This document shows positions 1-20,009 of a stretch of 64,000 bases of DNA, one piece after another. Under the pieces are notes generated by a model. The model had not been told where the DNA came from, did not search any database, and saw nothing but the letters and a program-made list of their open reading frames with translations. The DNA is from a virus (lineage: Duplodnaviria; Heunggongvirae; Uroviricota; Caudoviricetes): positions 1 through 64,000 of the IMG/VR virus record IMGVR_UViG_2713896909_000009, one strand, 5' to 3'. Each line of letters starts with the position of its first letter. The first letter of the stretch is position 1. Made by a program: the position numbers and the translations under genes.

Positions 1-49
1 ATTAGCGCTGATTTATGGGGATCCCTCAGCGCCAATTGGCGGGTTCTTT

Positions 50-838
50 TTAATCACTTTCCACTTCTTCCGTGGTGTTTTCTTGCAGTTCTGTTAATGC
101 AGCACGACACAGGTTCCGGGCCTTGGCTATAGCCACACTTTTTACCTCATCCGTCATTGTGCAGGTAATGTACTGATCGAGTTCTTCAGCTCGGATGATG
201 CTTTTCCCAATCATAAACTCTATTTGCCAGAGCAGATCGGCATCCATCGTCAGTATTTCAGCCTGGCCTTCTGGGCCTGCGGGGAAGCAAACATAAGACT
301 GTTTGCCCAGGCCGATAACTCGACAACTTGCTTCAAGAATTGCGCGCTTGAGATCTGACTTTGTAACGGAAACAGGTTGGTTTTCACCTGTGATTACACC
401 GTTGACATGGACGTGGAAGGGCATGTAGCTTGAAATACGCTCTACTTTCCACACGCCAGCAAGCGATCCTTCATGCAGCACAATGGGGGTAACCGCGAGC
501 TTCATCTCACCATATAACTGCTGGCAGATAGCTGGGTTGCTGAATACATCCAAAGGCTCACATTCAAACAGCGGCGCAATCTGCATGAGGTCCATCATGG
601 TCATCCCTGGGGTACGAGCAGTAATGAATTTGCGCATGCCAGTATCCATTGTTCGCCAGATAGCCACACCATGTTTTTTGCTCACTTCTTCAGTAAAGCC
701 AAGGTGGCACATGATGGTTTTTTCGATAGCCAGATCGGAGATAGAAACCTTTTCGCCAGGTACACCATCATTATTGATGGTTACTTCGACGTTCTGGCCA
801 TTACGCAGGCGGTATTGAATTGCTTTAGTATTTTCCAT
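50..838 (-). CDS. hypothetical protein, last gene of the ssb-side minus-strand operon
   Basis: 262-aa ORF starting 7 nt after the upstream 233-aa ORF; no motif recognised. Confidence 0.35.
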   Translation of the reverse strand: MENTKAIQYRLRNGQNVEVTINNDGVPGEKVSISDLAIEKTIMCHLGFTEEVSKKHGVAIWRTMDTGMRKFITARTPGMTMMDLMQIAPLFECEPLDVFSNPAICQQLYGEMKLAVTPIVLHEGSLAGVWKVERISSYMPFHVHVNGVITGENQPVSVTKSDLKRAILEASCRVIGLGKQSYVCFPAGPEGQAEILTMDADLLWQIEFMIGKSIIRAEELDQYITCTMTDEVKSVAIAKARNLCRAALTELQENTTEEVESD

Positions 839-844
839 GTTAAA

Positions 845-1546
845 TCACTCCACTACAAACCAGTCACATGCCAGCAGGTCACCTACAGAAGGCATCCATG
901 GAACAACTACACCTTGTGCATTTTTCAAAACGAAATGCGCACCATAAGGAGCAAGAGGAGAGTCGAAATTGATTTCAAGCTCTCCGTTTGCGGCATGTTT
1001 TATAGGGGTTAGTCTTGAAGCACCCTGTTTGTCAGGAACCAGCCAGCAGAATTGGTTTTCGCCGTTCCACCCGCGTCGAGCAACTTTCTTGCCATCCTTC
1101 AGCCACATCAGCGCGTCAGAAAAGTCGGCTGCTTCAAGGTCGATTTCTTCTTGCTGGGTGGTGATGCCACCAGCAGAAATAGTTACGCTCCCGGTAAGAT
1201 TAATCATCACGCCGTTGTCATCCGTAATGATGACCGTGGTTCCATTTTCGGAGGCGTCGTTAACCAGGCCGTAGCGTTCCTCAAATGGTTTCTCCGGGGC
1301 ATAGAACAGATAACCGTTTTCATAAACGATCAGATACCCGCCAGTTTTTGGTCGGTGTTTTTGTAAAAACATTGCGTCAACACAAACTGTTGCCCCTTTT
1401 GGTTCAACGAGTTCGATGCAGCCCCAAAGTGGGGCATCAGTTACTCCGAAAATAACAACATTTTTAATTTTCGATGCACTAACGTTTTTGTGAGCTTTGT
1501 ATTTGGGAAGGAACTTAAAAAGCTCTTTCGTTGTCATGTTATTCAT
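845..1546 (-). CDS. hypothetical protein with C-terminal DUF2829 (Tad2-like) region
   Basis: 233-aa ORF; C-terminal 'ALMWLKDGKKVARRGWNGENQFCWL' resembles the DUF2829 signature. Confidence 0.4.
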   Translation of the reverse strand: MNNMTTKELFKFLPKYKAHKNVSASKIKNVVIFGVTDAPLWGCIELVEPKGATVCVDAMFLQKHRPKTGGYLIVYENGYLFYAPEKPFEERYGLVNDASENGTTVIITDDNGVMINLTGSVTISAGGITTQQEEIDLEAADFSDALMWLKDGKKVARRGWNGENQFCWLVPDKQGASRLTPIKHAANGELEINFDSPLAPYGAHFVLKNAQGVVVPWMPSVGDLLACDWFVVE

Positions 1547-1560
1547 AGTCTTTTCTCTGC

Positions 1561-1743
1561 TTAAAAGCTGATGTATTGCGCCTTCAGGTGGGGCAAGAAT
1601 GTTTTCCCACCAGCGAAAGCAATATCTCGGGGTGTTCTATTCGTTAAAAGCGCGTGCCATTGCCAACTTTGGCGTTTTTTAGCGAGTTCGTGCTTTTGTT
1701 GGCGTCTGGACCACCGCTTTTCTTTCAGTCGTTTTTTACTCAT
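1561..1743 (-). CDS. small basic protein
   Basis: 60-aa Lys/Arg-rich ORF whose ATG abuts the ssb stop codon. Confidence 0.3.
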   Translation of the reverse strand: MSKKRLKEKRWSRRQQKHELAKKRQSWQWHALLTNRTPRDIAFAGGKTFLPHLKAQYISF

Positions 1744-2232
1744 TCAAAACGGAATATCGTCATCAAAGTCCATTGGAGGTTCGTTATTGGCGTTGCTCTG
1801 AGGTTTACCGCCACCGCTGTATTGCTGGTGGTTTTGAGGTTGGTTCGATTGCCCCCAGCCATTTGAGGGCTGTGAATCGTCACGGCGAGCGCCGATCATT
1901 TGCATGGTGCCGCCCTGGCTGACGATAATTTCCGTCGTGTAACGTTCTACACCGGCGTCATCTGTCCACTTACGGGTTTTAAGTTTCCCTTCGATGTAGA
2001 CCTGAGAACCTTTTCGTAAATACTCACTCGCAATTTCAGCAAGTTTTCCGAACAAAACGACTTTATGCCATTCTGTTTGCTCTTTCTGGTGGCCCGTTTG
2101 TTTGTCGCGCCATGATTCATTCGTTGCGATGCTGAGTCTTCCGACCGCTCCGCCATTTGGTATATACCTGATCTCCGGGTCTTGCCCCAGGGTACCAATC
2201 AGGATGACTTTGTTTACACCGCGTTGTGCCAC
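1744..2232 (-). CDS. ssb: single-stranded DNA-binding protein
   Basis: 162 aa; OB-fold N-terminus '[13 protein letters not shown]', Gly/Gln/Asn-rich linker, acidic tail ending DDDIPF. Confidence 0.93.
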
Positions 2233-2251
2233 TTATCTTACCTAATAAAAT

Positions 2252-2268
2252 AAATTAATTAGAGCAAT
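2252..2268. promoter_or_regulatory. C1 operator-like site just upstream of ssb
   Basis: 'aaattaattagagcaat' is the reverse complement of an ATTGCTCTAAT-type 17-mer. Confidence 0.5.
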
Positions 2269-2401
2269 AATGTATATCTTTGAAACGTAGCTAACAAGTG
2301 ATTTGCATTATCCTGTGCCTTCTAAAGGGATCGAGTCAGTCGGTATTGGCTGTGAATGGGTGTTTGTCCTGGAGCGTAAAAAATTCGCTTATGAGGTCTT
2401 T

Positions 2402-2959
2402 ATGAAGGGAAAAACAGCCGCAGGAGGCGGTGCAATTTGCGCTATCGCGGTGATGATTACCATCGTGATGGGTAATGGCAATGTGCGAACCAACCAGGCG
2501 GGGCTTGAGCTGATTGGTAACGCTGAAGGTTGCCGACGTGATCCATACATGTGCCCGGCAGGGGTATGGACTGACGGGATCGGTAATACACACGGGGTAA
2601 CGCCGGGTGTGCGAAAAACAGACCAGCAAATCGCCGCTGATTGGGAAAAGAATATCCTGATCGCTGAACGCTGTATTAATCAGCACTTCCGGGGCAAAGA
2701 CATGCCCGATAATGCCTTCAGTGCAATGACAAGCGCGGCATTCAATATGGGATGCAATAGCTTACGGACCTACTACAGCAAAGCGCGAGGCATGCGAGTA
2801 GAAACGTCCATCCACAAGTGGGCGCAGAAAGGGGAATGGGTGAATATGTGTAACCATCTCCCTGATTTCGTGAACAGTAACGGCGTGCCCTTGCGAGGTT
2901 TAAAGATTCGCCGTGAAAAAGAACGCCAGCTTTGCCTGACTGGGCTGGTCAATGAATAA
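2402..2959 (+). CDS. lyz: SAR endolysin, T4-lysozyme family
   Basis: 185 aa from the internal ATG of ORF 2303..2959; N-terminal Gly/Ala-rich SAR helix 'GGGAICAIAVMITIVMGNG'; E-x8-D-x5-T catalytic triad in 'NAEGCRRDPYMCPAGVWTDGIGNTHG'. Confidence 0.9.
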   Translation: MKGKTAAGGGAICAIAVMITIVMGNGNVRTNQAGLELIGNAEGCRRDPYMCPAGVWTDGIGNTHGVTPGVRKTDQQIAADWEKNILIAERCINQHFRGKDMPDNAFSAMTSAAFNMGCNSLRTYYSKARGMRVETSIHKWAQKGEWVNMCNHLPDFVNSNGVPLRGLKIRREKERQLCLTGLVNE

Positions 2960-3203
2960 ACTCCGGCAGCTCCGCCGACTTTCGACAATGAAGTTATCGC
3001 TGGCGGCGATAGTTTTTGACTCGATTTTCATGGCGGTATATGTGCTCATTGAGACGTGGCCACTGGAACCGCTATTGTATGCCGGGCTTCGGCTGTGCCT
3101 GACATTTTTGAGCATGGCTGCAAGATTGATGCAGCAGAAAGAAACCGCTTCAGATTGCCCACGTCGCGCGGTGCGCAAATATATGGCACGCAGGCGAAGA
3201 TGA
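2952..3203 (+). CDS. small two-TM membrane protein (holin-like), overlaps the lyz stop
   Basis: 83 aa; two hydrophobic helices and a basic C-terminus 'RRAVRKYMARRRR'. Confidence 0.4.
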   Translation: MNKLRQLRRLSTMKLSLAAIVFDSIFMAVYVLIETWPLEPLLYAGLRLCLTFLSMAARLMQQKETASDCPRRAVRKYMARRRR

Positions 3204-3213
3204 TTTAACCATC

Positions 3214-3247
3214 ATTGCTCTAATAAATTTGATTTATTAGAGCAAAT
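3214..3247. promoter_or_regulatory. bipartite C1 operator (two overlapping 17-mers in inverted orientation)
   Basis: 'attgctctaataaatttgatttattagagcaaat': a perfect ATTGCTCTAATAAATTT plus an inverted partner. Confidence 0.7.
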
Positions 3248-3546
3248 AACCTACCATCGAACACGGCTCTATTGATCTCATCGTCGTTCAGGCTTATAGT
3301 TCCACCGTCGTAGCAAATTCTGCGACCAGGTTTGACAGCCTGAATACGAATGCGGACAACCGCAGATTTCCGATATTGCGGTATTTTTGTGTCCGTAAAC
3401 CACGTTACGCCCGAATTATGGTGGGGCGTGATGGGGAGGCTTCGGCCTGCTGGTTTCATTCGTGCCAGTCTGTCAACCCTGTCACGTCCTGCCACCTGTT
3501 TGACAGCGGGTCGCAGGTTGTTAAACCTACGAATGAGGCCGTAACT

Positions 3547-3768
3547 ATGGTTAATGCCAATCCTTGCGCACGCCCTGAATTTATCTGGCGCTTTTACTCC
3601 TGCCAGAAACGTCACTATCACTTAGTAATTGCACCGACAGAAGATGAGGCCCGCTCTCAGCTTCCTGACGCTCCCTGCATTTTCTCTGCCCGCTTTTCCA
3701 CTGATTCGCGCAACTCTCTCAGTTACTGGTGCCTCCCTGTTAACGCTTCTGCTCAGGAGGGGCTATGA
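3547..3768 (+). CDS. small ORF translationally coupled to the antirepressor-like gene (icd-like position)
   Basis: 73 aa 'MVNANPCARPEFIWRFYSCQKRHYH...'; stop overlaps the next ATG (ATGA); conserved in all three cassettes. Confidence 0.5.
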   Translation: MVNANPCARPEFIWRFYSCQKRHYHLVIAPTEDEARSQLPDAPCIFSARFSTDSRNSLSYWCLPVNASAQEGL

Positions 3769-4856
3769 GAACGTCATTAGTCACCCGTGAAGAAATGATT
3801 GAGGCAATTGAACAGCACACATCCTGTATCAGTACCAGGGATATACCGGGTGTTATTGCCAACTACTTCATGATCACCAAACAACTTTACCGGAGAAAGG
3901 ACAAGAACGCGGTTCACCGCATTCTGTTGTCTGATATCCGTGAATACCTGCTCGAACAGGGTCGTCTTGATTATGCAACCGTAACCGCCGAAGCACGCAA
4001 GGAGGCACACAGGATGAAAGCAACTAATGTTAAATCAGAAAAAATTACCCTGCCTTCAGTTCAGGAATCCGAGCTGGTGGTTGTTCAGAATCAGTCTGAT
4101 GAAATTCCCGTTCTGGAATGGCTGGGAGTGCGTGTCGTAACGACCGAAACTCTTGCTAGAGGGTATGGTACCGATGAAGCCAATATTCGTAAAAATTTGT
4201 CTCGCAACTCCGATCGCTTTGAAGAAGGCAAGCATTACTATCTCTTAACCGGTTCAAAGTTAAAGGAATTTAAAAGGCTAGTGACTATTAGTCACTTGGT
4301 TAGCAAATATACAAGTCAGGTAATTCTCTGGACAGAGCGCGGCGCTGCACGCATGTCTAAGATCGTGGACACAAATGAAGCATGGGCATTCTTTGAAAAA
4401 CTGGAAGACAGCTACTTCCGACAAAAAGAACAGCAACCGGTCTCAATTCCCCAGACGCTTCCAGAAGCTCTGCGCCTGGCTGCCGAGTTGGCAGAACAGA
4501 AAATGCAACTGGAACAACAGCTGGTGGCCGCCGCTCCTAAAGTCGATTTTGCCGACCGGGTATCAGTAGCTAAAGGGATCCTGATTGGGAATTTTGCAAA
4601 GGTTGTTGGACTTAAGCAAAACGCGCTGTTTGCCTGGTTACGGGAGAACGGCATCCTGATTGCGTCCGGCGGACGTAAAAATGTACCGTTTCAGCAGTAC
4701 ATAAATGCCGGGTATTTCACGGTGAAAGAAGTGGTGCTGGATGATGAAGATGGCTACCAGATACGGTTGACGCCCCAGCTAACGGGGAAAGGCCAGCAGT
4801 GGCTGACGCGTAAACTGCTCGATGCAGGTTTATTAAAGCCTGTAGCGGCTGAGTGA
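3765..4856 (+). CDS. antirepressor-like protein (ORF6N/Bro-N-like central domain, KilA-C/ORF6C-like C-terminus), paralog 1
   Basis: 363 aa; 'VLEWLGVRVVTTETLARGYG' and C-terminal 'PKVDFADRVSVAKGILIGNFAKVVGLKQNALFAWLRENGILIASGGRKNVPFQQYINAGYFTVKEV'. Confidence 0.7.
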   Translation: MRTSLVTREEMIEAIEQHTSCISTRDIPGVIANYFMITKQLYRRKDKNAVHRILLSDIREYLLEQGRLDYATVTAEARKEAHRMKATNVKSEKITLPSVQESELVVVQNQSDEIPVLEWLGVRVVTTETLARGYGTDEANIRKNLSRNSDRFEEGKHYYLLTGSKLKEFKRLVTISHLVSKYTSQVILWTERGAARMSKIVDTNEAWAFFEKLEDSYFRQKEQQPVSIPQTLPEALRLAAELAEQKMQLEQQLVAAAPKVDFADRVSVAKGILIGNFAKVVGLKQNALFAWLRENGILIASGGRKNVPFQQYINAGYFTVKEVVLDDEDGYQIRLTPQLTGKGQQWLTRKLLDAGLLKPVAAE

Positions 4857-4868
4857 TTAAATTAAAAA

Positions 4869-4886
4869 GGCGGCCTTTCGGCCGCC
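4869..4886. terminator. GC hairpin terminator between the antirepressor-like gene and pro
   Basis: 'ggcggcc tttc ggccgcc' flanked by an A-run on the plus strand, so a T-run in minus sense. Confidence 0.5.
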
Positions 4887-4931
4887 AGTGATTTCAGATA
4901 CCCCGGCAGCCGCCGGGGTTATTTTTGGTGG

Positions 4932-7662
<2,731 letters not shown>

Positions 7663-7729
7663 TTAATTAGAATAATTCGCATCGTGTTTGAACGGAAATT
7701 TAACACTAGTCACTTGTTAAGGATTACCA

Positions 7730-10700
7730 ATGAACAAGCTATCTATGGGGGTGTTTCGCTGTTCAAGTGTCAGCGAAATATTGAAATACATTAGTGCAAT
7801 AACATCTCACCGAGCGCCGATTAGATACGGCGTGGAAAAGGTGGAAGGCAAAAGCTATGACCGACTACGCCGGGAGGCGAATCAGAAGGCGATAGATTTG
7901 CTTAATTCGCTGGTGGACGGCGCGACACTGACAGATGAACAGCGCCAGATCCTGGCTGGGTACACCGGCGAAGGCGGCATTGGCGGGTCCGTCTCCGAAT
8001 ATTACACACCAAAGCCGATCGCTGAAGGTGTCTGGGAGATCATGAAGCTCTACGGCGCGGACGTAGGTAACACTCTGGAACCATCGGCGGGAACCGGCGT
8101 TTTTAATGAGACAAAACCGGTTGGTACGGTGATGACCGCGACTGAGATCAGCAGTGTTTCCGGTCGTATAAACCAGCTGTTGCACCCGGAAGACAGCGTA
8201 CAGATTTCTCCGTTCGAACAACTGGCTGTAAGCACGCCTAACGATTCATTCGACCATGTTGTGGGTAACGTTCCGTTCGGTGGTCGTGATAACACACGCA
8301 ACATCGATAAGCCTTACGCAGAAGAAACGGACATGGGTTCTTACTTTATGCTCCGCATGCTGGACAAGATAAAGCCAGGCGGATTCATGTGCGTGATTGT
8401 GCCGCCGTCCATTGTTTCAGGTTCAAACATGAAGCGGTTACGCCTGCGTCTATCCCGTAAAGCTGAATTTCTTGGCGCTCACCGCTTGCCTACCGGTACT
8501 TTTGACGCAAACGGGACCAGTACGGTCGTTGATGTGGTGCTGATGCGCAAGCATCCGGCAGAGATGGCTGAGAAAATCCCCCTGGTGGATGAAAGCACTC
8601 TTGAATCGGCAAATGTGCTTTGGCCAACGTTTATTTCTGGCAAGTGGTTTGAAAAGGACGGCCGCCGGTTTGTTCATGGCACCCAGGAGAAGGGATTCCA
8701 GGGGCGTATTGAGGTTCGTGCCGACGGGCAGATTGATAACCAGGCTCTTAAAGCGAAGCTGATTCATCGTTTCGAAAGTCGTATCGACTGGTCTTTGCTC
8801 AATATGGCTGAACCGTCACCGACCGCAGACGTTGTTGATGAAGGGGAAATGCGCCTGATTAATGGCGTATGGCAAAAATATGCTGGTGGTCGCTGGATTG
8901 AATCTGATGCCGGGAAGGAGCTGAAGATTGATGTTGCCAGTTATGGCGCGGACAGCTGGGAGGCTCTTCAGCGTAACCTGACTACAACAGAAGGCCGTCT
9001 CGGTATGACATTTACCCAGATGGCAAATGTCCGCGATAAGTACACCACATCAATCAGCGACGATATGGTGCAGCTGGTGGACTGGATTAACAGCCAGCCT
9101 GAAAAATACCGTGAACGCTTGTATCGCGGGGCGATGATTGGCCGGATGTTAATTGAATATCAGGATATGAAGGCCGCCGGGCATAGTGCTGAACAAATCG
9201 AACAGCAGCGCCTTTCCCTAGTATCCCGTTTGCAGGCAGAGATTGACCGTTTTGGTAACCCCGGTCGCGGTCCGATAGCGAAATTATCGGGGAGCGGTGC
9301 GCGCGCCTGGTTTGCTTTCCGTGGTGCAATTAAGCTGGATGGCACTATTTCTGACGAGCTGACAGGAAAGCTGGTTACGCATGATTCCAGCGCCAGTTAT
9401 GACTCCACCAGCTATCAGGACACCCTGCGTTATCTCTACAGTGATCTCACTCGCGATCCAATCCAGCTCGATGATTTCCGCCTTGCGTTTACCGGCGAAC
9501 TGCCAGCCAGTGATGACGAGTTGCTTAATTTATTGGCCAGCACCCCTGGCATTGCGGTTTCACCGTATGGCGGGATTGTTCCGTTTGCCCGCGCCACCAG
9601 CGGCGACATTAACGAGATAGTGGCTCCAAAACAGGAATTCCTCGCCACGCTCCCCGACGGTCCAGTAAAGAACAACGTCCTTAATCAGCTGGCAGCGATC
9701 GAAGAGAAGCGCATCAAGACGCCAGCAGAGAATATCCGCTTTAAGCTCAATAGTCGTTGGTTCGACCGTTCCGTCATTCTGGAGTTTTTGCAGGAAAACG
9801 GCTATCCGGATCTGCGCTATGTGCAGTCAGTGCAGTTGGAAGGCGACGAAATGGTTTCTGACACCTATCACGGTGGTGATGGTCTGTTTGTCGGGCACCG
9901 ATACGGTGTCGTCCAGCGTAAGGATAAAGAAACAGGCGAGATCCGCTACGAGTGGGACCGTAAATCAGGTGAAAACGCGACCGGGTTCCCGGCACAACTG
10001 GAAAAGTATCTCAATGGTGCACGTATCGGTGGCAAAGATAGCGCGACGGCGAACGGCTACCGCGAGCAGATGGCACTGCTTGAGGACCAGTTCAATAAGT
10101 GGATCAAGACGCACGATCGCTACGATGAACTGGTTGCCAAATACAACGATGTGTTCAATAGCAATATCCCGTATGAACACTCTGGCGATCCGCTTGGGTT
10201 GAAGGGATTAAGCGGTAAGCGACAGCCATTTGATTACCAGAATAGCGAGGTGCGCAGACTGTCCGAAGATGGGCGCGGAATCCTGGGCTTCGGTACCGGG
10301 CTGGGTAAAACCACGACCGCGCTGGCGCTTGAGGCGTTCAACTATGAGAACGGTCGCTCCACCCGTACTGCGTATGTAGTGCCTAAATCAGTGCTGGAAA
10401 ACTGGTATTACGAAGCAAAAGAGTTCCTGAGTGAAGAGGCATTCAGTAACTACCTGTTCGTCGGTCTTGATGTGCTGATGGATGGCGATCAGATTCGCCA
10501 GGTGCCGGTGCTCGATGAGAACGGTAAACCTGTTCTTGGTACTGATGGCACTCCACTTATGCGCGATGCCCTTAAACTGGCAGATGAAGCCACTATCACG
10601 GCGCGTATGAACGCGATCCCGCACTCAAATTACCGTGCTGTAGTGCTCACCAAAGAACAATACTTCCGCCTTCCTCTACGCGATGAAACCGTAGATGAGC

Positions 10701-13700
10701 ATGCTCAAGATATGCTTTTGGACTTTGTTGCCGCCGGGCGTGTAGCCAGCGCAATGGACTCCGACTCCCACCGCAAAGAGGCCGCGCGTCGCCGTATATT
10801 GTCGGAGTATTCAGATACCGGCACCGAAAAATCAGATAAGTATCCGTACTTTGAGGATATGGGCTTCGATAGCGTGATCGTTGACGAAGGCCACAACTAC
10901 CGCAATAGCTATAAAAATGGTCGCGAAGCGTCACAGTTGGCCTATCTGCCCACCAGCGCGGTGGCGCAATCGGCGCGAGATATGGCAATCAAAAACGCGT
11001 ACCTGATGAAAAAGAATGGCGGGCGCGGACCGGTTCTCCTGACTGCAACGCCAGTCGTTAACACCCCGATCGATGCATACAACATGCTTTCTCATGTTCT
11101 GCCGAAGGAATACTGGCAGAAGATGGGGATCTACAGTCCTGATGACTTCGTTAAATTCTTCGGCAAGACCAGGCTGGAAACGGTACAGAAAATCAGCGGT
11201 GAAGTTGAAGAAAAAATGGCGCTGGTGGGCTTTGAAAACCTTGATGCGCTGCGCGGTATATTCCATCGCTGGGTAACGCTTAAAACGGCGGAAGACGTTA
11301 AGGATACCGTGGAGATCCCGGAGCTGGACGAACACCAGCAGGATGCACCACTTACTGAAGAACAACTGGCGGCGTATGAAGAATTGCGTCAGCAGGCGGA
11401 AGCGGCAGCCAAAGCCAACAATGGCGTAACGTCCTCGGTCAATGAAGACGGCGTGATTGAGCACGAGAAAGCCCGTCCGATCTTCTCAATAATCAGGGAT
11501 ATGGACCGCGTATGTACTGACATGGACCTGTACTATCGCCGGATCACCTATCGTTTCCTGCCGGAGTACGCCGATGCGGTGCAGCAGCTGGCGGACAGTT
11601 TGCCTAAACAAGCCACTAGCGAAGACGACGACAGTGATGATTCTATCACGCAGCAATCGCAATACTCCCTGATAGATAAGGGCGAGTTTATTCAGTTGCA
11701 GGTTCCGGAAGCGTTCGAGCAGGAAGTGAATAAGCGCCTGGCCAGGTTTGGCATTGACGAACAGACCGTTACTCACCCCGTTATGCCCAAATACGCGAAG
11801 CTGATCGCCACGCTGAAGGAGTTTTTCCCGGAAGGTAAGCAAATCATCTTCACCGATGAAAAAACGCAGCACCAGAAGCTCAAGCGCATTATCTGCAATG
11901 CTCTTAACCTTGAACCTTCAAAGGTGGGGATCCTGAATGCTCAGACGGTTGCCGAGGCAGGTAAAACCGGTAAGAAACTGAAAGCGGTTAAACCGCCGAA
12001 AGAGTTACCGGATGAACCAACAGATGCACAGATAGCGAAATACAACGAGCAAATGGCTCTGTATGACGCCTATATCGCGCAGCAAAATGAAATGTCGCTG
12101 GGCGGGCTGGAAAAGATTGCTGCCGACTTCCAGGAGGGCCGGACTCCGATCATCATCTGCAACAAAAAGGCAGAGGTGGGTATCAACCTGCATCGAGGAA
12201 CGACTGACATCCATCATCTGACGTTGCCATGGACACCAGCCAGTATCGCACAGCGTAACGGTCGCGGTGCCCGAGTTGGCTCCAACCGTGCAAGCGTTCG
12301 CGTTCACTACTACTGCGGCAAGGGTTCTTTCGATGAATACCGACTGAAGACGCTGAAGCGTAAAGCAGGCTGGATCTCCGATATCCTCCGTTCAGATAAG
12401 TCAGAAATGGAGAACGCCGACGCCAACGATATGATCGAAATGCAGATGTATACCGCTAAGGATGATGGCGAACGTCTGGCAATGATGCAGGTTCAAATGG
12501 ATAAGGCGAAAGCCGCGCAACGCGCTCGCCAGAAAGAACAGGCTACTATCGACCTTCAGAACTACATCAAGGCGCAGCACGCAGCTGGCGAGGATGTGGA
12601 GGTACTTACCGCTGAATTGGAGCGAAGCAAAGCGGAACTTGAAAAGACCACCGCCGACGTCGACAAATTCAAACAAGCAGCAATGGCCAAAGCAGCTGAT
12701 AACGCAGACTGGAAGGCCCGCTGGGGGAGTGTCCATCACACAGACCGTATGTTGTTAGCACAGTATCGCGCGTCGTTGAAAAGCGCCATTCAGCGCAAGG
12801 CTAATATCTCTCAAGCCATCTCCCGCTATGAGAAATTATTGAACCGTACTCAGAAGGCCGCGACGGATATCAAACGCCTGCGCCCGCTGGTGGAGGATGC
12901 AATAAATAAAGGCATTCTGGATGTTGATCCTGACCTAGTTAACCATGCGAGTGAGTTCCTTGTTATCGGCGATCGCTCATGGCGTGTAGGCCAATACTAC
13001 GATTGTGCCGGTGATATCGTTCGCATTAAGTCGCTGGACTTCGACAGCCAGCGCGCAGACGTGGAGATCATCTTTACCTTCAAAGGCACCAAATCGGGTA
13101 ACTGGGATGTGAAGACGCTGGATAAACAGGTGGATGTAACTCCCGATGAAGATGCTGTTATGCAGAAAATCAGTGGTGGCGTCTCCATCGCCGGGATTAA
13201 CGACATCATTTCCTGTGACGATTTCTACCGTTTCCAGCAGCGCGGCATGATCAAAATCACTGACTCATACGGCGTTCAGACTACAGAGTCAGGCTATAGC
13301 ATTGATTTTGTTGGTACCTATACGGACCCACTGAAGCATGCGGTTTACCCGGATCGCCGTGACGGCGCGCTGAAGTCGTCAATTGCAAAATGGGTGCTTG
13401 GTATGATGTCGGAAGGGAATAACCGCCAGATCCGTTCGGCAGAAACATTCCTGGTTGAACTGTTTGGCTCCAATTATGGCGATGTAATCGCGTCATACGG
13501 AGATACGCTATCCCCTGAAGCAATTCAGGAGAAAATAGCGGATGCGATCGCCAGAATGCCGGAAAAAACAAACCAGGGGGCTACTCGTAACGGGGATTCT
13601 GAACTTGAAGTCACCAATGCCATTTTCGGTACCAATGAGTTCCGGGCGTCAGATTATGAGATCACCACAGCACAGTTTGGCACCATTGGCATTTACAGCA

Positions 13701-14497
13701 ATAAAGACGAGATCAAGCAGGCAATGGACGCAGCAAGTGCGCGCATTGCAGCAGAACGGAAAGCCAATCTGAATCATGCAGTCGCCGCGCTGACTCAATC
13801 GTGGGTAACAGCAATCAGGGAGGCCGCCACCACAGGAAAAATCACACCGGCAATTGCGGATGTCGTAAACGACGGCTCTAAATTTATGGATGCCTATAAA
13901 ATGGATGCGGTGCAGTTGCCATCAGCCTATGGCCAACTCAGCTATCGCATGACCTACAACCTGGTATCAATGTTTACTGACCTTGCCATCCTTGGGCTGG
14001 TGGATCTTAACGAGGTTACGCCGGAATTGCTCAGCATGCGCAAGAATCATGTGGAGATATTGCAGAGAATTAACACTGTTCTTGCCGGGCGCACCGATGA
14101 AGAGAAACAGGCCGACGCTGATCGGATAAACCTGGCCCTTGGCAACATCACGGAGGAAGAAATTGCCGCCAGAAACGAGAAACAAGAAGAGTTATCATCA
14201 ATACAGGGTGATGCCACCAGCATAGCTCAGTCTCTTGGTCTGAATTATCGCGTATCCACTGCCGACCTGAAGATGATGTACGCACCAAAATTCGCCTCTG
14301 GCGAGGTATTTGGGCTTCAGGAGGCGTCCGGCATGAAAGGTGTCCTTTTCCGTGCTAAAGACGCAATCAAGGTGAAATTCGGCGCTCGCTGGCTGCCAGC
14401 GAAGGCGAAGAACAGCGATTTCCCGGGTAACTGGTGGATTATCGAGACAAAACACAACGTGGCGGACGTTCTGGCCGTCATCCAACAATACGCATAA
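7730..14497 (+). CDS. darB: DarB antirestriction protein (N6-adenine methyltransferase fused to SF2 helicase)
   Basis: 2255 aa; SAM motif 'LEPSAGTGVF', 'NVPFG' (NPPF-like), Walker A 'GTGLGKTT', 'VDEGHNYRN', 'QRNGRGARVGS'. Confidence 0.9.
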   Translation: MNKLSMGVFRCSSVSEILKYISAITSHRAPIRYGVEKVEGKSYDRLRREANQKAIDLLNSLVDGATLTDEQRQILAGYTGEGGIGGSVSEYYTPKPIAEGVWEIMKLYGADVGNTLEPSAGTGVFNETKPVGTVMTATEISSVSGRINQLLHPEDSVQISPFEQLAVSTPNDSFDHVVGNVPFGGRDNTRNIDKPYAEETDMGSYFMLRMLDKIKPGGFMCVIVPPSIVSGSNMKRLRLRLSRKAEFLGAHRLPTGTFDANGTSTVVDVVLMRKHPAEMAEKIPLVDESTLESANVLWPTFISGKWFEKDGRRFVHGTQEKGFQGRIEVRADGQIDNQALKAKLIHRFESRIDWSLLNMAEPSPTADVVDEGEMRLINGVWQKYAGGRWIESDAGKELKIDVASYGADSWEALQRNLTTTEGRLGMTFTQMANVRDKYTTSISDDMVQLVDWINSQPEKYRERLYRGAMIGRMLIEYQDMKAAGHSAEQIEQQRLSLVSRLQAEIDRFGNPGRGPIAKLSGSGARAWFAFRGAIKLDGTISDELTGKLVTHDSSASYDSTSYQDTLRYLYSDLTRDPIQLDDFRLAFTGELPASDDELLNLLASTPGIAVSPYGGIVPFARATSGDINEIVAPKQEFLATLPDGPVKNNVLNQLAAIEEKRIKTPAENIRFKLNSRWFDRSVILEFLQENGYPDLRYVQSVQLEGDEMVSDTYHGGDGLFVGHRYGVVQRKDKETGEIRYEWDRKSGENATGFPAQLEKYLNGARIGGKDSATANGYREQMALLEDQFNKWIKTHDRYDELVAKYNDVFNSNIPYEHSGDPLGLKGLSGKRQPFDYQNSEVRRLSEDGRGILGFGTGLGKTTTALALEAFNYENGRSTRTAYVVPKSVLENWYYEAKEFLSEEAFSNYLFVGLDVLMDGDQIRQVPVLDENGKPVLGTDGTPLMRDALKLADEATITARMNAIPHSNYRAVVLTKEQYFRLPLRDETVDEHAQDMLLDFVAAGRVASAMDSDSHRKEAARRRILSEYSDTGTEKSDKYPYFEDMGFDSVIVDEGHNYRNSYKNGREASQLAYLPTSAVAQSARDMAIKNAYLMKKNGGRGPVLLTATPVVNTPIDAYNMLSHVLPKEYWQKMGIYSPDDFVKFFGKTRLETVQKISGEVEEKMALVGFENLDALRGIFHRWVTLKTAEDVKDTVEIPELDEHQQDAPLTEEQLAAYEELRQQAEAAAKANNGVTSSVNEDGVIEHEKARPIFSIIRDMDRVCTDMDLYYRRITYRFLPEYADAVQQLADSLPKQATSEDDDSDDSITQQSQYSLIDKGEFIQLQVPEAFEQEVNKRLARFGIDEQTVTHPVMPKYAKLIATLKEFFPEGKQIIFTDEKTQHQKLKRIICNALNLEPSKVGILNAQTVAEAGKTGKKLKAVKPPKELPDEPTDAQIAKYNEQMALYDAYIAQQNEMSLGGLEKIAADFQEGRTPIIICNKKAEVGINLHRGTTDIHHLTLPWTPASIAQRNGRGARVGSNRASVRVHYYCGKGSFDEYRLKTLKRKAGWISDILRSDKSEMENADANDMIEMQMYTAKDDGERLAMMQVQMDKAKAAQRARQKEQATIDLQNYIKAQHAAGEDVEVLTAELERSKAELEKTTADVDKFKQAAMAKAADNADWKARWGSVHHTDRMLLAQYRASLKSAIQRKANISQAISRYEKLLNRTQKAATDIKRLRPLVEDAINKGILDVDPDLVNHASEFLVIGDRSWRVGQYYDCAGDIVRIKSLDFDSQRADVEIIFTFKGTKSGNWDVKTLDKQVDVTPDEDAVMQKISGGVSIAGINDIISCDDFYRFQQRGMIKITDSYGVQTTESGYSIDFVGTYTDPLKHAVYPDRRDGALKSSIAKWVLGMMSEGNNRQIRSAETFLVELFGSNYGDVIASYGDTLSPEAIQEKIADAIARMPEKTNQGATRNGDSELEVTNAIFGTNEFRASDYEITTAQFGTIGIYSNKDEIKQAMDAASARIAAERKANLNHAVAALTQSWVTAIREAATTGKITPAIADVVNDGSKFMDAYKMDAVQLPSAYGQLSYRMTYNLVSMFTDLAILGLVDLNEVTPELLSMRKNHVEILQRINTVLAGRTDEEKQADADRINLALGNITEEEIAARNEKQEELSSIQGDATSIAQSLGLNYRVSTADLKMMYAPKFASGEVFGLQEASGMKGVLFRAKDAIKVKFGARWLPAKAKNSDFPGNWWIIETKHNVADVLAVIQQYA

Positions 14498-14530
14498 CAG
14501 GAGCGCCCGGTTAGCCGGGCGTCGCATAAT

Positions 14531-14971
14531 ATGGCCACACTATCTGATACAATAAAACCGAATAAAACATATCTTGAGGCGGTACTCCGTACAGCGTTGT
14601 TAGGAAAGACAGAAGACGAATACGTTGATTTCTTCCTGTCAGGGCTACGCGGGCGATTACTGAAAAATCCCCGCTTGTACCGCAGCTATGGTCCATACTG
14701 GCCGGAAATTAAAAAATTATTACTGGAGCGCGGTTATGGTAATTTCGGTCGTCTCGTTGACCGTGACGTTCGCAAAATTTACCGTTATGACCGCCCGGCG
14801 CTAACACTCATAGCCGCGACGCTCTACAGCCAGGAGCGTTTTGATAATGGTCAGATATACTCAGCCTGGCATTTACTGCCAGTGCCTGAAGAAGTTGACG
14901 ACCAGGACTATGAGTTTGAGTCTTACGATTTGGAAGTTGAAGCCTTGGCACGGGCTGGAGAGAAAACTTGA
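14531..14971 (+). CDS. ulx: Ulx-like protein downstream of darB
   Basis: 146-aa ORF 34 nt after darB; assignment by synteny and size. Confidence 0.45.
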   Translation: MATLSDTIKPNKTYLEAVLRTALLGKTEDEYVDFFLSGLRGRLLKNPRLYRSYGPYWPEIKKLLLERGYGNFGRLVDRDVRKIYRYDRPALTLIAATLYSQERFDNGQIYSAWHLLPVPEEVDDQDYEFESYDLEVEALARAGEKT

Positions 14972-15216
14972 AAAAGCGATACTACACAGTAAAGCATGGG
15001 ACGCTACGAGCATTACAAGAGTTTGCTGACAAGCATAACGTTGAGGTGCGCAGGGAAGGGGGAAGTAAAGCTCTGCGCATGTACCGTCCTGACGGAAAAT
15101 GGCGGACGGTCGTCGATTTCAAAACTAACAGCGTTCCCCAGGGCGTCCGCGACCGGGCATTCGAAGAATGGGAGCAGATCATCATAGATAATGCATTGCT
15201 TCTGAATGCTGATTAA
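14968..15216 (+). CDS. lxc: Lxc-like small protein
   Basis: 82-aa ORF with a 4-nt overlap with the preceding gene; assignment by synteny and size. Confidence 0.45.
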   Translation: MKKRYYTVKHGTLRALQEFADKHNVEVRREGGSKALRMYRPDGKWRTVVDFKTNSVPQGVRDRAFEEWEQIIIDNALLLNAD

Positions 15217-15264
15217 TGGTTTTGTTTCCCGGTATCGTATTATACCGGGAAATATCTTTTTATA

Positions 15265-15672
15265 TTAACCCGCGGCTGCAATTAGTGCTGACCCAACCGC
15301 CAGTGTGGTGACAAGGCCTATAATGACCACTGTCGCTGTTACCCCTCCTGCAACAGCAGCTCCAGTCTTTGTTTTGGATAACTCTTTCTTTTCTAGAGAA
15401 ATGATTTCACCCATAGGAATAGACTGGTTGTTAATACCATTGATATATTGTGGGGTAACTTTCGATACTGTCATTTCACCTTCGCTACCTGATTTTAACT
15501 TGTATTTAATTAGGTCACCAGCATATATCGGCGGCTCCGTTAAATAATAGGTACTTCTTTCAAGATTTTTCTGCTGTATGTTAACTCCCTGATAAGACTG
15601 ACATCCACATAACACAAGCGATAAAATTAGCGTTGTCAGTAATTTTCTTTTGTTTTTTATCATTGCCAGCAC
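15265..15672 (-). CDS. putative lipoprotein with C-terminal glycine-zipper helix (SlyB/Pcp-like)
   Basis: N-terminal signal 'KRKLLTTLILSLVLCGCQS'; C-terminal 'GAAVAGGVTATVVIIGLVTTLAVGSALIAAAG'; AT-rich gene. Confidence 0.55.
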   Translation of the reverse strand: MLAMIKNKRKLLTTLILSLVLCGCQSYQGVNIQQKNLERSTYYLTEPPIYAGDLIKYKLKSGSEGEMTVSKVTPQYINGINNQSIPMGEIISLEKKELSKTKTGAAVAGGVTATVVIIGLVTTLAVGSALIAAAG

Positions 15673-15797
15673 TCCTTCTCCTTTTCTTTGTATAGCTAAA
15701 ACACATTATTTATTCTTGTCAAATAGTTTTGAGTTTGAGAGTGAGGTTTGCGTGACGACGCTCTAAAAGTTGCAGATAGCGGTAAAGATAATTTTAT

Positions 15798-16466
15798 TTA
15801 CAATATGTTACCTTTTCCGGTAAGTATGCCTTGCGGTACTTTACTTTCCCCCATTAGTTGAGTGGCATGAATGATATTAATAAATGACATTAGTTGTGAT
15901 GAACTCTTATTAACATTTATCTCTCCTGCCATTGCCCTAATGTAGTCGGCGCTTGCAACGTTGTTATATTCCGTTGCGAAGCAGCATAACAACGTCAGAA
16001 CGTGCTCTGTCGTTATTTCGCTCCAGTTGATGTTGAAAAATTCATCGCCTTTTTTGTCATGTTCGGAATCGAAGATGCTTTGGTGGAGGATGTATTTGCC
16101 GGATTCCTTGCGCGGTAACTTGATCGCTTTCTGGCGTTCCAATTCCTTGTAAATCTGCATTGCTTCAATCAGTACCGGCCTGCCGTTCATGAAGGGATCG
16201 CGCAACCTTACACGCTGGCCAACTCGACCGGTAATAAAGCTGTTTTCCTCTTCCACCAGCACGATAAAACCTTTTTCCTCTTTCTCACGCAATTCGCGCA
16301 GCAACTGGAGTTCCATATCGCGGCGGCGTTCAGGGTAGCTGGTCCGCTCAGCCATTATCAGCTCGTTATTGATCCATGCAGCAGTCATTGACGCCGGTTT
16401 GCCGACGCTCATCGAAACAACGCATATTTTCTTATCCATAGCGCCCCTACAAAAAAGAAAAGCCAC
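15798..16466 (-). CDS. hypothetical cytoplasmic protein, upstream partner of the lipoprotein
   Basis: 222-aa ORF (start may be the internal Met at about 16439); AT-rich; no motif recognised. Confidence 0.5.
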   Translation of the reverse strand: MAFLFCRGAMDKKICVVSMSVGKPASMTAAWINNELIMAERTSYPERRRDMELQLLRELREKEEKGFIVLVEEENSFITGRVGQRVRLRDPFMNGRPVLIEAMQIYKELERQKAIKLPRKESGKYILHQSIFDSEHDKKGDEFFNINWSEITTEHVLTLLCCFATEYNNVASADYIRAMAGEINVNKSSSQLMSFINIIHATQLMGESKVPQGILTGKGNIL

Positions 16467-16697
16467 CAGCGGCGGCTTAGCAATACAACTGAAGGTAGCG
16501 CCCGGTACTCAGACTGTGCCGTCCATGGAATATTTGAAAAGGGATCCATCCGTACCGGGCATATGATGATTCTGACTGAAGTCACTTGTCAGTTGTCAAT
16601 TATTTCAGATTAAAAATAATATATTTATTAGTGCATACAAATAAAACAATAAGTGTGCACATTGCAACCTCAGAGAGGAAACATTCAATCAGATTGA

Positions 16698-16730
16698 ATT
16701 GCTCTAATAAATTTGATTTATTGGATCAAA
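16698..16730. promoter_or_regulatory. C1 operator (perfect 17-mer plus degenerate inverted partner)
   Basis: 'attgctctaataaatttgatttattggatcaa'. Confidence 0.6.
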
Positions 16731-17031
16731 AATACTACCATTGAACGCCAGAGTATTGATCTTCCTGTTGTTCAGGCTTATAGTTCCGCCGTCGTAGCAA
16801 ATTCTGCGACCGGGTTTGACAGCCTGAATGTACATGCGGGCAACCGCAGATATCCGATATTGCGGTATTTTTGTGTCCGTAAAACCACGTTACGCCCGAA
16901 TTATGGTGGGGCGTGATGGGGAGGCTTCGGCCTGCTGGTTTCATGTACGCCAGTCTGTCAACCCCGTCACGTCCTGCCACCTGTTTGACAGCGGGTAGCA
17001 GGTTGTTAAACCTGTACATGAGGCCGTAACT

Positions 17032-17256
17032 ATGGTTAATGCCAATCCTTGCGCACGCCCTGAATTTATCTGGCGCTTTTACTCCTGCCAGAAACGCCAC
17101 TATCACTTCGTTATTGCACCGACAGAAGCTGAGGCACGTTCTCAGCTTCCTGACGCCCCCTGTATTTTCTCCGCCCGTTTTTCTACCGATTCGTCGCGCA
17201 ATTCTCTCAGTTACTGGTGCCTCCCTGTTAACGCTTCTGCTCAGGAGGGAGTATGA
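17032..17256 (+). CDS. small ORF coupled to antirepressor-like paralog 2 (icd-like position)
   Basis: 74 aa 'MVNANPCARPEFIWRFYSCQKRHYHFV...'; ATGA overlap with the next gene. Confidence 0.5.
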   Translation: MVNANPCARPEFIWRFYSCQKRHYHFVIAPTEAEARSQLPDAPCIFSARFSTDSSRNSLSYWCLPVNASAQEGV

Positions 17257-18365
17257 GAACGTCATTAGTCACCCGTGAAGAGATGATCGAGGCAATTGAA
17301 CAGCACACAACCTGTATCAGTACCAGGGATATTCCGGGCGTTATTGCCAACTACTTCATGATCACCAAACAACTTTACCGGAGAAAGGACAAGAACGCGG
17401 TTCACCGTATCCTGCTGTCTGATATCCGCGAATACCTGCTCGAACAGGGGCATCTGAATTACGCAACCGTTGCAGCCGAAACACGCAAGGAGGCACACAG
17501 AATGAAAGCTACTAACGTTAAATCCGAAAAAATTCATGCACCTTCAGTTCAGGTATCGGAGCTGGTGGTTGTTCAGAATCAGTCTGATGAAATTCCCGTT
17601 CTGGAATGGCAGGGAGTGCGTGTCGTAACGACCGAAACTCTTGCTAAGGGGTATGGAACCGAAACTAATAACATCAAAGTTAACTATACGCGTAATGCTG
17701 ATCGCTTTGAGGAAGGTAAACATTACTTTCTACTAACTGGTTCAAAATTAAGAGAATTGAAGGACAAGGTTACTCAAAGTAACTTAGTCGCACCGCGAGC
17801 AAAGCACCTCACTCTCTGGACGGAACGCGGCGCAGCCCGCCACGCTAAAATGCTCGAAACCGATCAGGCATGGGCATTCTTTGAAAAACTGGAAGACAGC
17901 TACTTCCGGCAAAAAGAACAGCAACCGGTTGCAATCCCCCAAACATTACCAGAAGCCCTACGCCTGGCTGCCGAACTGGCTGAACAAAAGCAGCTTCTGG
18001 AACAGAAAGCCCACCAGCTAAATCAGCAGCTGGTGGCCGCAGCCCCCAAAGTCGATTTTGCCGACCGGGTATCAGTAGCTAAAGGGATCCTGATTGGGAA
18101 TTTTGCAAAGGTTGTTGGACTTAAGCAAAACGCGCTGTTTGCCTGGTTACGGGAGAACGGCATCCTGATTGCGTCCGGTGGACGTAAAAATGTGCCGTTC
18201 CAGCAGTACATAAACGCCGGATATTTCACAGTGAAAGAAGTGGTGCTGGATGATGAAGATGGCTACCAGATACGGCTGACGCCCCAGCTAACTGGGAAAG
18301 GCCAACAGTGGTTGACGCGTAAACTGCTCGAAGCTGGCTTGTTAAAACCGGTGGCGGCTGAATGA
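17253..18365 (+). CDS. antirepressor-like protein, paralog 2
   Basis: 370 aa; N- and C-terminal thirds near-identical to paralog 1, central domain diverged. Confidence 0.7.
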   Translation: MRTSLVTREEMIEAIEQHTTCISTRDIPGVIANYFMITKQLYRRKDKNAVHRILLSDIREYLLEQGHLNYATVAAETRKEAHRMKATNVKSEKIHAPSVQVSELVVVQNQSDEIPVLEWQGVRVVTTETLAKGYGTETNNIKVNYTRNADRFEEGKHYFLLTGSKLRELKDKVTQSNLVAPRAKHLTLWTERGAARHAKMLETDQAWAFFEKLEDSYFRQKEQQPVAIPQTLPEALRLAAELAEQKQLLEQKAHQLNQQLVAAAPKVDFADRVSVAKGILIGNFAKVVGLKQNALFAWLRENGILIASGGRKNVPFQQYINAGYFTVKEVVLDDEDGYQIRLTPQLTGKGQQWLTRKLLEAGLLKPVAAE

Positions 18366-18371
18366 TTAAAA

Positions 18372-18392
18372 AAGGCGGCCTTTAGGCCGCCA
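18372..18392. terminator. GC hairpin terminator
   Basis: 'ggcggcc ttta ggccgcc' with adjacent A-run (T-run in minus sense). Confidence 0.5.
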
Positions 18393-18508
18393 ATGATTTC
18401 AAGAAGCAGGCAATGGCCATGTCTTCGTAGTTGACTAATGCCATCGCTTAATTATAACAATAAATTAGAACAATGGCATTTTTTATTTTTTTATCGAGAA
18501 TCACATTC

Positions 18509-18610
18509 TTTCACTTCGGCACCTGTGTGCTATACTCCTTCTTGATTGATTGGATGCGGAATACAAACCCGCTTTTTTGTGCAGCCTGGCTACTTGCCAG
18601 GCTTTTTTTT
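18509..18610 (+). ncRNA. candidate small RNA unit (promoter to intrinsic terminator)
   Basis: -35 'tttcac', 16-nt spacer, extended -10 'tgc tatact'; about 68 nt later hairpin 'agcctggc tactt gccaggct' followed by T8. Confidence 0.3.
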
Positions 18611-18920: not shown

Positions 18921-18937
18921 ATGCCACCATAAATATC

Positions 18938-18953: not shown

Positions 18954-18970
18954 TTCCTATGCATTGACGG

Positions 18971-20002: not shown

Positions 20003-20009
20003 TTAACAC

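Follow-up and report, generated by a model that had tools for sequence, protein, structure and literature searches.

The window analysed here, a 64,000-nucleotide stretch of DNA (positions 1 to 64,000 of IMG/VR record IMGVR_UViG_2713896909_000009), belongs to a P1-like (Punavirus) plasmid prophage and contains three cassettes related to the immunity region immI of phages P1 and P7. Judged from the elements it contains, each locus is a complete, self-contained P1-type immI module with an operator for the C1 repressor, a leader encoding the antisense RNA C4, a small icd-like open reading frame (ORF) and an antirepressor gene, ant. Because the public contig that matches the window also has a module at the canonical immI position, the genome carries four modules, three ectopic ones in the window and the canonical one outside it. 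The four modules have four codes for C4 recognition, and we consider it likely that they act as stacked, mutually orthogonal immunity and anti-immunity modules that provide several specificities per phage.

Architecture of the immI-type cassettes

In P1, C4 blocks the translation of icd and thereby of ant, and Ant1 and Ant2 bind and inactivate C1 (P1 record annotation; PMC12197685). The heteroimmunity of P1 and P7 is due to c4 (PMC12197685, citing Citron and Schuster 1990). According to the annotation of the P1 record, the P1/P7 immI elements are arranged in the order Oc4/Op51 - P51a/b (P2c4, P1c4) - a1 b1 - c4 - a2 b2 - icd - ant1/ant2. The cassettes of the window consist of the following elements (lengths in nucleotides, nt, or amino acids, aa).

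Cassette 1
3214-3247, plus strand: C1 operator, an exact 17-mer (3214-3230) followed by an inverted imperfect second half-site; homologue of P1 Oc4/Op51
3272-3300, plus strand: sigma-70 promoter TTGATC-17-TATAGT, aligned with P1 P1c4 (P51b) in position and sequence
3294-3352, plus strand: c4-a1b1 element (RF03163, 57.1 bits), with a1 TTGACAG at 3332-3338 and b1 ACGAATG at 3346-3352
3420-3496, plus strand: C4 antisense RNA, 77 nt (RF01695, 69.8 bits, match 3414-3499), with loop b' CAUUCGU and single-stranded joint a' CUGUCAA
3500-3538, plus strand: C4 target sites, a2 TTGACAG at 3500-3506 and b2 ACGAATG at 3529-3535, the latter abutting the icd Shine-Dalgarno sequence GAGG
3547-3768, plus strand: icd-like ORF, 73 aa (NF033153), overlapping ant by ATGA at 3765-3768
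3765-4856, plus strand: ant, 363 aa, with a P1-Ant1-like N-terminus, ORF6N at residues 117-200 and KilAC at 250-352
4869-4886, unstranded: 3' hairpin GGCGGCC-TTTC-GGCCGCC, with a T-run after it on the minus strand

Cassette 2
16698-16714, plus strand: C1 operator, exact consensus
16756-16784, plus strand: promoter TTGATC-17-TATAGT, aligned with the annotated P1 promoter
16778-16836, plus strand: c4-a1b1 element (RF03163, 56.8 bits), with a1 TTGACAG at 16816-16822 and b1 GTACATG at 16830-16836
16905-16981, plus strand: C4 antisense RNA (RF01695, 70.7 bits, match 16899-16984), with b' CAUGUAC and a' CUGUCAA
16985-17023, plus strand: C4 target sites, a2 TTGACAG at 16985-16991 and b2 GTACATG at 17014-17020, the latter adjoining the Shine-Dalgarno sequence
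17032-17256, plus strand: icd-like ORF, 74 aa (NF033153), overlapping ant by ATGA at 17253-17256
17253-18365, plus strand: ant, 370 aa, with ORF6N at residues 116-200 and KilAC at 258-360
18374-18391, unstranded: 3' hairpin GGCGGCC-TTTA-GGCCGCC, on the minus strand a terminator facing a retained ref-type promoter at 18479-18451 (minus strand)

Cassette 3
23713-23729, minus strand: C1 operator CTTGCTCTAATAAATTG, two mismatches, 3 nt past the pacB stop codon
23560-23638, minus strand: isrK-type leader element (RF01394, 62.4 bits), with a1 TTGGAAC at 23612-23606 and b1 GCAAAAGG at 23595-23588
23581-23565, minus strand: intrinsic terminator inside the isrK-type element
23432-23509, minus strand: C4 antisense RNA of a different scaffold (RF01695, 76.7 bits, match 23428-23515), with b' CCUUUUGC and a' GUUCCAA
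23385-23423, minus strand: C4 target sites, a2 TTGGAAC at 23423-23417 and b2 GCAAAAGG at 23392-23385, the latter overlapping the Shine-Dalgarno sequence AAGGAGG
23152-23373, minus strand: icd-like ORF, 73 aa (NF033153), overlapping ant by ATGA at 23155-23152
22040-23155, minus strand: ant, 371 aa, with ORF6N at residues 116-201 and KilAC at 259-360
22011-22032, minus strand: 3' hairpin ATGCCCGG-TTGA-...CCGGGCAT, between the ant and c1 stop codons

A sequence-only reading of the window had placed there three repeats of a C1 operator, a structured leader of about 300 nt, a 73-74-aa ORF joined by ATGA to the next gene and a 363-371-aa antirepressor-like protein, and had likened them to the c4-icd-ant organisation of P1 immI. 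Every element it listed is present at the coordinates it gave, and the architecture agrees element by element with the annotated P1 region. Element order, the C1 operator consensus, the ATGA overlap of icd and ant and the codon for Met84 (an Ant2-type start) are all shared with P1 immI. From the operator to the ant stop codon, the three loci align with a mean column identity of 87%.

The C1 operator 17-mer, ATTGCTCTAATAAATTT, occurs exactly at 3214-3230 and 16698-16714 (plus strand) and with two mismatches at 23729-23713 (minus strand). Ten sites with at most two mismatches are found in the window, against 0.04 expected by chance. The operator of cassette 1 contains a perfect 14-nt inverted repeat, TTGCTCTAATAAAT TTG ATTTATTAGAGCAA, and is possibly a bivalent C1 operator. 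The second operator arm is degenerate in cassette 2 and absent from cassette 3 and P1; the cassettes may therefore differ in the tightness of C1 control. Cassettes 1 and 2 have the P51b-type promoter and the C4 scaffold of P1, where P51b, the c4 promoter, is constitutively active. For cassette 3, inspection by eye yielded a weak promoter candidate, TTGCGC-17-TATGCT, which agrees with the consensus at 8 of 12 positions and whose location fits the start of the isrK model.

The leaders extend over about 333-356 nt from the operator to the ATG, and each contains a C4 RNA recognised by Rfam (gathering score 45 bits). The element upstream of C4 is of the c4-a1b1 type in cassettes 1 and 2 and of the isrK type in cassette 3, for which the gathering scores are 46.7 and 50 bits, respectively. 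When folded, all three C4 RNAs adopt the fold of P1 C4, with a long closing stem, two hairpins, the first capped by a tetraloop and the second by a 9-nt loop, and an unpaired joint of 7-8 nt. As in P1 C4, b' lies in the 9-nt loop and a' is unpaired. The predicted fold energies are -43.2 kcal/mol (z -5.1) for cassette 1, -45.3 kcal/mol (z -5.5) for cassette 2 and -46.4 kcal/mol (z -5.4) for cassette 3.

In contrast to P1 and P7, cassette 3 combines an isrK-type leader with a different C4 scaffold, which invites comparison with the isrK-orf45-anrP locus of the Salmonella prophage Gifsy-1 (RF01394). As in Gifsy-1, the leader opens with an isrK-family element bearing its own terminator, and the small ORF and antirepressor gene downstream are laid out in a manner consistent with translational coupling (PMC4825925). 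Unlike Gifsy-1, cassette 3 has a C4 RNA between the isrK-like element and the small ORF, its isrK-like element bears a1/b1 boxes, and its small ORF is Icd-like and 73 aa long, whereas Gifsy-1 orf45 has 45 aa. The short IsrK RNA of Gifsy-1 activates translation of the read-through mRNA in trans (PMC4825925), a mechanism that may or may not apply to cassette 3. The Gifsy-1 locus may be the same kind of module.

All three small ORFs match the Icd-like family NF033153 of NCBIfam with 48-50 bits (cut-off 25), and Icd of cassette 1 is 81% identical to P1 Icd. The ORF listing extends the small ORF of cassette 1 upstream as far as a TTG (3376), but the start codon homologous to that of P1 icd is the ATG at 3547. 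The three Ant proteins carry the ANT/KilAC domain PF03374 (E-values of 1e-31 to 1e-32) and align along their entire length with PHROG 63, 'anti-repressor Ant'. An internal Met84, preceded by the Shine-Dalgarno sequence AAGGAGG, is invariant among them, which suggests an Ant2-like second start. Their N-terminal and KilAC segments are shared with P1 Ant1. The central module, in contrast, is an ORF6N domain in the window proteins and a different segment with no Pfam match in P1 Ant1. A phmmer search of the Ant proteins against PDB sequences returned chance matches alone (ribosomal protein L9, E = 0.003) and no solved relative. The rejected candidates include a known defence system, for which PADLOC gave just weak domain-level ORF6N matches (22-32 bits) to the candidate PDC-S05.

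The sequence-only reading had also described proteins with near-identical ends and a divergent ORF6N centre, which it took for a diversified family rather than recent duplicates, and both points stand. Identity among the three Ants is 94-97% over the N-terminal 95 residues and 93-98% over the C-terminal 156 residues, as opposed to 46-62% in the ORF6N core. The codon differences in the C-terminal part comprise 29-36 synonymous versus 3-4 non-synonymous changes, and all cassette ORFs are intact. The copies thus look maintained by selection, given the intact frames and the mostly synonymous changes in the conserved Ant segments. Because of the synonymous divergence and the mosaic central domain, the cassettes are best read as old, selected paralogues or independently acquired modules and not as fresh duplicates. 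Recent in-situ duplication was ruled out by the synonymous divergence together with the different leader type of cassette 3.

The contrast between the ORF6N core and its conserved flanks, together with the altogether different central module of P1 Ant1, lends itself to another explanation, compatible with orthogonal immunity modules, that we regard as rather unlikely. The modules would differ mainly in the targets of their Ants, which could be other C1 alleles or unrelated prophage repressors, and the stack would be a set of cross-induction weapons that the codes keep silent one by one. Antirepressors of the Gifsy type are described as acting on lysogenic repressors in Salmonella (PMC4825925). 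However, each of the three cassettes retains a C1 operator, the N-terminal and C-terminal segments that the window Ants have in common with P1 Ant1 tie them to the C1 circuit, and no candidate alternative repressor was identified.

Recognition codes of the C4 RNAs

The evidence for separate specificities comes from the two boxes, a and b, through which C4 would recognise its targets. In all modules read, each code has its complement in the loop and joint of its own C4, and the same box occurs at both target sites; box b overlaps or abuts the icd ribosome-binding site. The codes are as follows.

P1: a TTGACAG, b GTTAGTG
P7: a TTAGCAG, b GATTGTG
Cassette 1: a TTGACAG, b ACGAATG
Cassette 2: a TTGACAG, b GTACATG
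Cassette 3: a TTGGAAC, b GCAAAAGG
Canonical module of the same genome: a TTAGCAG, b GTTAGTG

In the three window cassettes the cognate helices span 8-11 base pairs (bp) for b and 7 bp for a (11 and 7 bp, respectively, in cassette 1). The codes of P1 and P7 are 2 nt apart in each box, whereas the window modules are further apart in box b.

These codes were placed in a wider context by a survey in which IMG/VR was scanned for the C4 scaffold and, separately, for a conserved stretch of icd; together with reference records, this yielded 137 cassettes, 135 of them with a parsable C4. The variable stretch of the C4 scaffold is 6 nt long, and the IMG/VR scan with that pattern returned 44 loci. Among C4 RNAs with the P1 scaffold, in which six different b' loops occur, b' is exactly complementary to both b1 and b2 in 48 of 48 cases. 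A wobble-aware analysis took in 135 of the 137 cassettes, and in all 135 the b'-b2, a'-a2 and b'-b1 helices with the cassette's own C4 reach at least 7 bp; a1 was detected in 81 of the 135 within a fixed search window. Nineteen cassettes have the code TTGGYCT/GTCYAAGG, which pairs via G-U wobbles. Altogether the 135 cassettes fall into 17 (a',b') code classes that combine 6 a' with 9 b' variants.

Consistent with separate specificities, the predicted b duplexes have a mean energy of -12.0 kcal/mol for cognate pairs and -3.4 kcal/mol for non-cognate pairs. Cross-pairs within this genome range from -1.1 to -6.0 kcal/mol, compared with -4.9 / -5.2 kcal/mol for the P1 x P7 cross-pair. The in-genome cross-pairs are thus roughly as strong as that of P1 and P7 or, for all but one of them, weaker.

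These observations can be assembled into a model. The promoter homologous to P51b, with the C1 operator just upstream of it, would transcribe a leader containing the decoy or auto-target boxes a1/b1, the 77-nt C4 and then a2/b2 at the icd ribosome-binding site. C4, trimmed to 77 nt by RNase P as in the P1/P7 modules, would pair through loop b' and joint a' with a2/b2 and thereby block icd translation. Since ant starts within the icd stop codon (ATGA), synthesis of Ant, the C1-inactivating protein, would be blocked along with it. Because every module has a different a/b code, each C4 should lock only its own ant. As a prophage, an element of this type would make four C4 species, which would protect it against any relative with an ant module of a matching code. 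When it infects, it could produce Ant from one or more modules in any lysogen that lacks one of its four C4 types and thereby overcome the resident C1. Three of these steps are inferred, namely orthogonality in vivo, inactivation of C1 by the ORF6N-type Ants and a role of the stack in heteroimmunity.

The immI region of phage P22 (sar/ant) is likewise a second immunity region whose antirepressor is silent in the lysogen, with participation of the antisense RNA sar. Control of its antirepressor is exerted largely by two protein repressors, Mnt and Arc, and a two-box kissing code is absent. The likeness of P22 immI to the window modules is in the regulatory logic.

Insertion sites, relatives and spread

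The cassettes occupy three positions of an otherwise P1-like backbone, at lydD-pro, the ref site and c1-pacB, in contrast to P1 and P7, whose module lies next to kilA/repL.

3200-4899: cassette 1 insert, 1.7 kb between P1 positions 20065 and 20085, i.e. between the lydD and pro stop codons
16637-18367: cassette 2 region, which replaces P1 2070-2628 (the ref ORF), in opposite orientation
22007-23732: cassette 3 insert in the 25-bp P1 gap between the pacB stop codon at 93206 and the c1 stop codon at 93232

P1 has no cassette at any of these sites, and the sequence-only reading was right that it has one copy: the P1 and P7 records each show a single module, at the kilA/repL locus, a position that none of the window cassettes occupies. 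A location next to kilA-repL characterises the type phages and not the module as such. The canonical module of this genome was located in the contig that matches the window, about 7.2-8.8 kb past the window's right end (assembly GCA_001515005.1). It consists of icd (73 aa) and a gene for a 348-aa P1-type Ant without ORF6N, followed by kilA and repL. An assembly artefact was ruled out, as the same junctions are found in independent complete plasmids.

At the ref site, the 3' hairpin of cassette 2 should halt transcription from the retained ref-type promoter at 18479-18451 (minus strand). The GGCGGCC-N4-GGCCGCC hairpin of cassettes 1 and 2 occurs in P1 as well, at about 2046-2070, in the 5' untranslated region of ref directly upstream of the start codon. 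With the T8 that follows it there, it has the form of an intrinsic terminator oriented in the ref sense direction. Since the hairpin of both cassettes recurs before P1 ref, the mat-c8 site may be the original location of cassettes that end in this hairpin; alternatively, the hairpin may have served as a common joint for recombination.

The identity of the host element is supported by the left 20 kb of the window, which are collinear with P1 at about 97% identity, and by the backbone genes cre, c8, c1, coi, pacB, lyz, pro, prt and darB. The public match, contig BBWA01000014.1 (96,467 bp) of NCBI assembly GCA_001515005.1, is about 99.99% identical, with 1 mismatch in 12,276 bases over window positions 51725-64000 and 99.86% identity over 14253-21373. 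The nearest complete plasmid in PLSDB is Escherichia albertii pEA22_2 (NZ_CP117630.1), with 99.5% identity over window positions 30-15214 and 98.8% over 33539-64000. The repressor gene lies outside the cassettes.

21156-22007, plus strand: c1, C1 repressor gene, an ORF of 283 aa, 95.7% identical to the P1 c1 region

An identical gene bears the Pfam label Phage_P7_repressor_C1. C1 is presumably the protein that the Ants attack and that binds the three operators.

Extra icd-ant copies have been reported before. An additional ant lies between pacB and c1 in RCS47 and pTZ20_1P, and icd-ant1/2 homologues occur in the region RD-1 of pSvP1 (PMC6906374); a second c4+icd region in the D6-like plasmid pYU39_89 was called 'noteworthy' (PMC6799933). 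These reports mention the copies in passing, in gene lists, without C4 RNAs, codes or a functional reading, and none of them describes a genome that has three ectopic cassettes in addition to the canonical one. We found no description of the C4 genes of ectopic copies, of code diversity, of the combinatorial make-up or of stacking in the searchable literature, outside which Gilcrease and Casjens 2018 falls. The pacB-c1 inserts of RCS47, vB_EcoM-673R5 and JL22 are 90-94% identical to cassette 3 over its full length, and the phage collection searched held no full-length match to cassettes 1 and 2. Among plasmid records, cassette 1 with its flanks is matched at 99.9% and the cassette 2 region at 98.4%, and the cassette proteins are routinely annotated there by PGAP. 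Each cassette therefore belongs to a well-known family, and what goes beyond the known is the occurrence of four modules with four codes, the swapped central domain of Ant and the one isrK-type leader.

The arrangement is not unique to this genome, as public databases already contain many P1-like plasmids with several cassettes. The C-terminal segment of ant was found at 1,005 places in 660 PLSDB records and at 1,023 places in 668 of 5,426 complete E. coli genomes (median 1, maximum 5), 1,001 of the latter places being on plasmids. The sites of the surveyed cassettes were distributed as follows.

Canonical, next to kilA-repL: 46 cassettes
c1-pacB: 43 cassettes
Next to ref: 19 cassettes (of 137; IMG/VR loci with ref upstream)
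mat-c8, ref replaced: 14 cassettes
lydD-pro: 6 cassettes

The site beside an intact ref is a fifth one, common in IMG/VR contigs and unused in the window, and is occupied mostly by isrK-scaffold cassettes with the code TTGGAAC/GTCAAAGG. One code can sit at different sites in different genomes: that of cassette 3 was found 7 times at the canonical site, 7 times at c1-pacB and 5 times next to ref. In the E. coli O111:H2 plasmid NZ_CP077553.1, cassettes occupy the same four sites as in this genome and have four different codes, with the cassette 3 code at the canonical site and another code at c1-pacB. In the same plasmid, RefSeq 'ash family protein' ORFs, one of them a pseudogene, lie over the isrK-type/C4 leaders of two cassettes (positions 20524-20643 of locus L158 and 11481-11798 of locus L159). 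They are probably spurious protein calls on non-coding RNA.

The distribution does not end with P1-like phages. The 3' half of the cassette 3 C4, with a2/b2 and the start of icd, has matches of about 77% identity in over 100 Stx-converting lambdoid phages, and the counterpart region is annotated there as 'regulatory protein' or left unannotated. On the basis of this match, the C4-icd unit is shared well beyond P1-like phages.

Other variable parts of the backbone were also noted. The interval from lxc/ulx to mat (window 15215-15921; compared with positions 44747-45697 of locus L001), which is the variable region RD-1 of the literature, lacks the res-mod (EcoP1) genes of P1. It contains a PIN-domain gene in pEA22_2 that is absent from the window, and a 132-aa ORF on the other strand in the matching contig. 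Two tRNA genes (46984-47056 and 49294-49366, minus strand) mark the tRNA region of the P1-like backbone, in which an Rfam match to the small RNA STnc100 (47803-47918, minus strand) scores 47.3 bits, barely at the gathering score of 47.

Probable orthogonal immunity modules and their meaning

Several observations weigh against stacked orthogonal immunity. For cassette 3, the promoter candidate is only weak and the operator has two mismatches. Since the window Ants have a central domain (ORF6N) other than the one in P1 Ant1, they may act on a target other than C1. P1 and P7, the sole pair shown experimentally to be heteroimmune, differ in both boxes, whereas cassettes 1 and 2 agree in the a box (TTGACAG) and do not differ in their C4 scaffold, which makes partial cross-repression between these two conceivable. 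Finally, the apparent absence of repeated codes within genomes depends on how it is assessed. Among 17 multi-cassette genomes none repeated a code or a b box and 3 repeated an a box. The probability of observing no duplicates is 0.04 for the full code and 0.004 for the b box only under a global null, but 0.43 and 0.13, respectively, when site-specific code frequencies are kept, which is not significant. A rule of no duplicate codes per genome is therefore suggestive, not proven.

The shared a box and scaffold of cassettes 1 and 2, and the fact that codes are partly tied to insertion site, such that non-redundancy within genomes is not statistically separable from a site effect, are also what would be expected of redundant paralogues that were carried along by hot-spot recombination. 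Such copies would be cross-regulated via the common scaffold and a box and would contribute no immunity specificity of their own, their code differences being neutral hitch-hiking from different donor phages, and the median of one copy shows that most P1-like plasmids manage on a single module. We nevertheless think this explanation improbable. The covariation of b1, b' and b2 is perfect in every cassette examined, which would be unexpected if pairing specificity were unimportant; neither the ORFs nor the RNA folds are disrupted, although synonymous divergence is substantial; and the four-site, four-code arrangement recurs in the plasmid of another species.

Very improbable, in our judgement, is a chiefly plasmid-stabilising or abortive function of the type I toxin-antitoxin kind, with a harmful Icd and/or Ant, C4 as the antidote and additional copies strengthening retention: the layout is indeed that of an antisense RNA acting on the translation of a small ORF, with cell-division inhibitor as its annotation, and the plasmid element already has phd/doc (seen in the relative pEA22_2), but the role known for the region in P1 is immunity (P1 record; PMC12197685), and because C4 and its target are on one transcript and C4, being highly structured, is presumably stable, plasmid loss should not unbalance the pair toward toxicity.

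Stacked, orthogonal modules thus remain our preferred interpretation for this genome. As a tentative extension, which we put forward as possible and somewhat short of an even prospect, P1-like phage-plasmids may share a combinatorial immunity system based on a two-box RNA barcode. It would comprise at least 17 mutually non-pairing codes on modules of about 1.7 kb that move among five hot spots and are stacked up to four or five per genome. Each module would be both a lock, in that C4 shields the lysogen against relatives with that code, and a key, in that Ant breaks the immunity of lysogens without that C4.

P1/P7 heteroimmunity has its textbook basis in the c4-icd-ant region, which has so far been treated as a single locus with two known specificities. 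The picture that emerges here is of a mobile module with many natural specificities, four of them in one plasmid prophage. P1-like plasmids are common in E. coli and E. albertii, and published examples carry resistance genes (PMC6906374). If the codes are orthogonal in vivo, they would explain discrimination, exclusion or induction among P1-like plasmids that share one C1 repressor. If the barcode proposal is true, the stacking would be the trace of an arms race between related plasmid prophages, and the set of codes would represent a ready library of orthogonal, compact antisense regulators for engineering.

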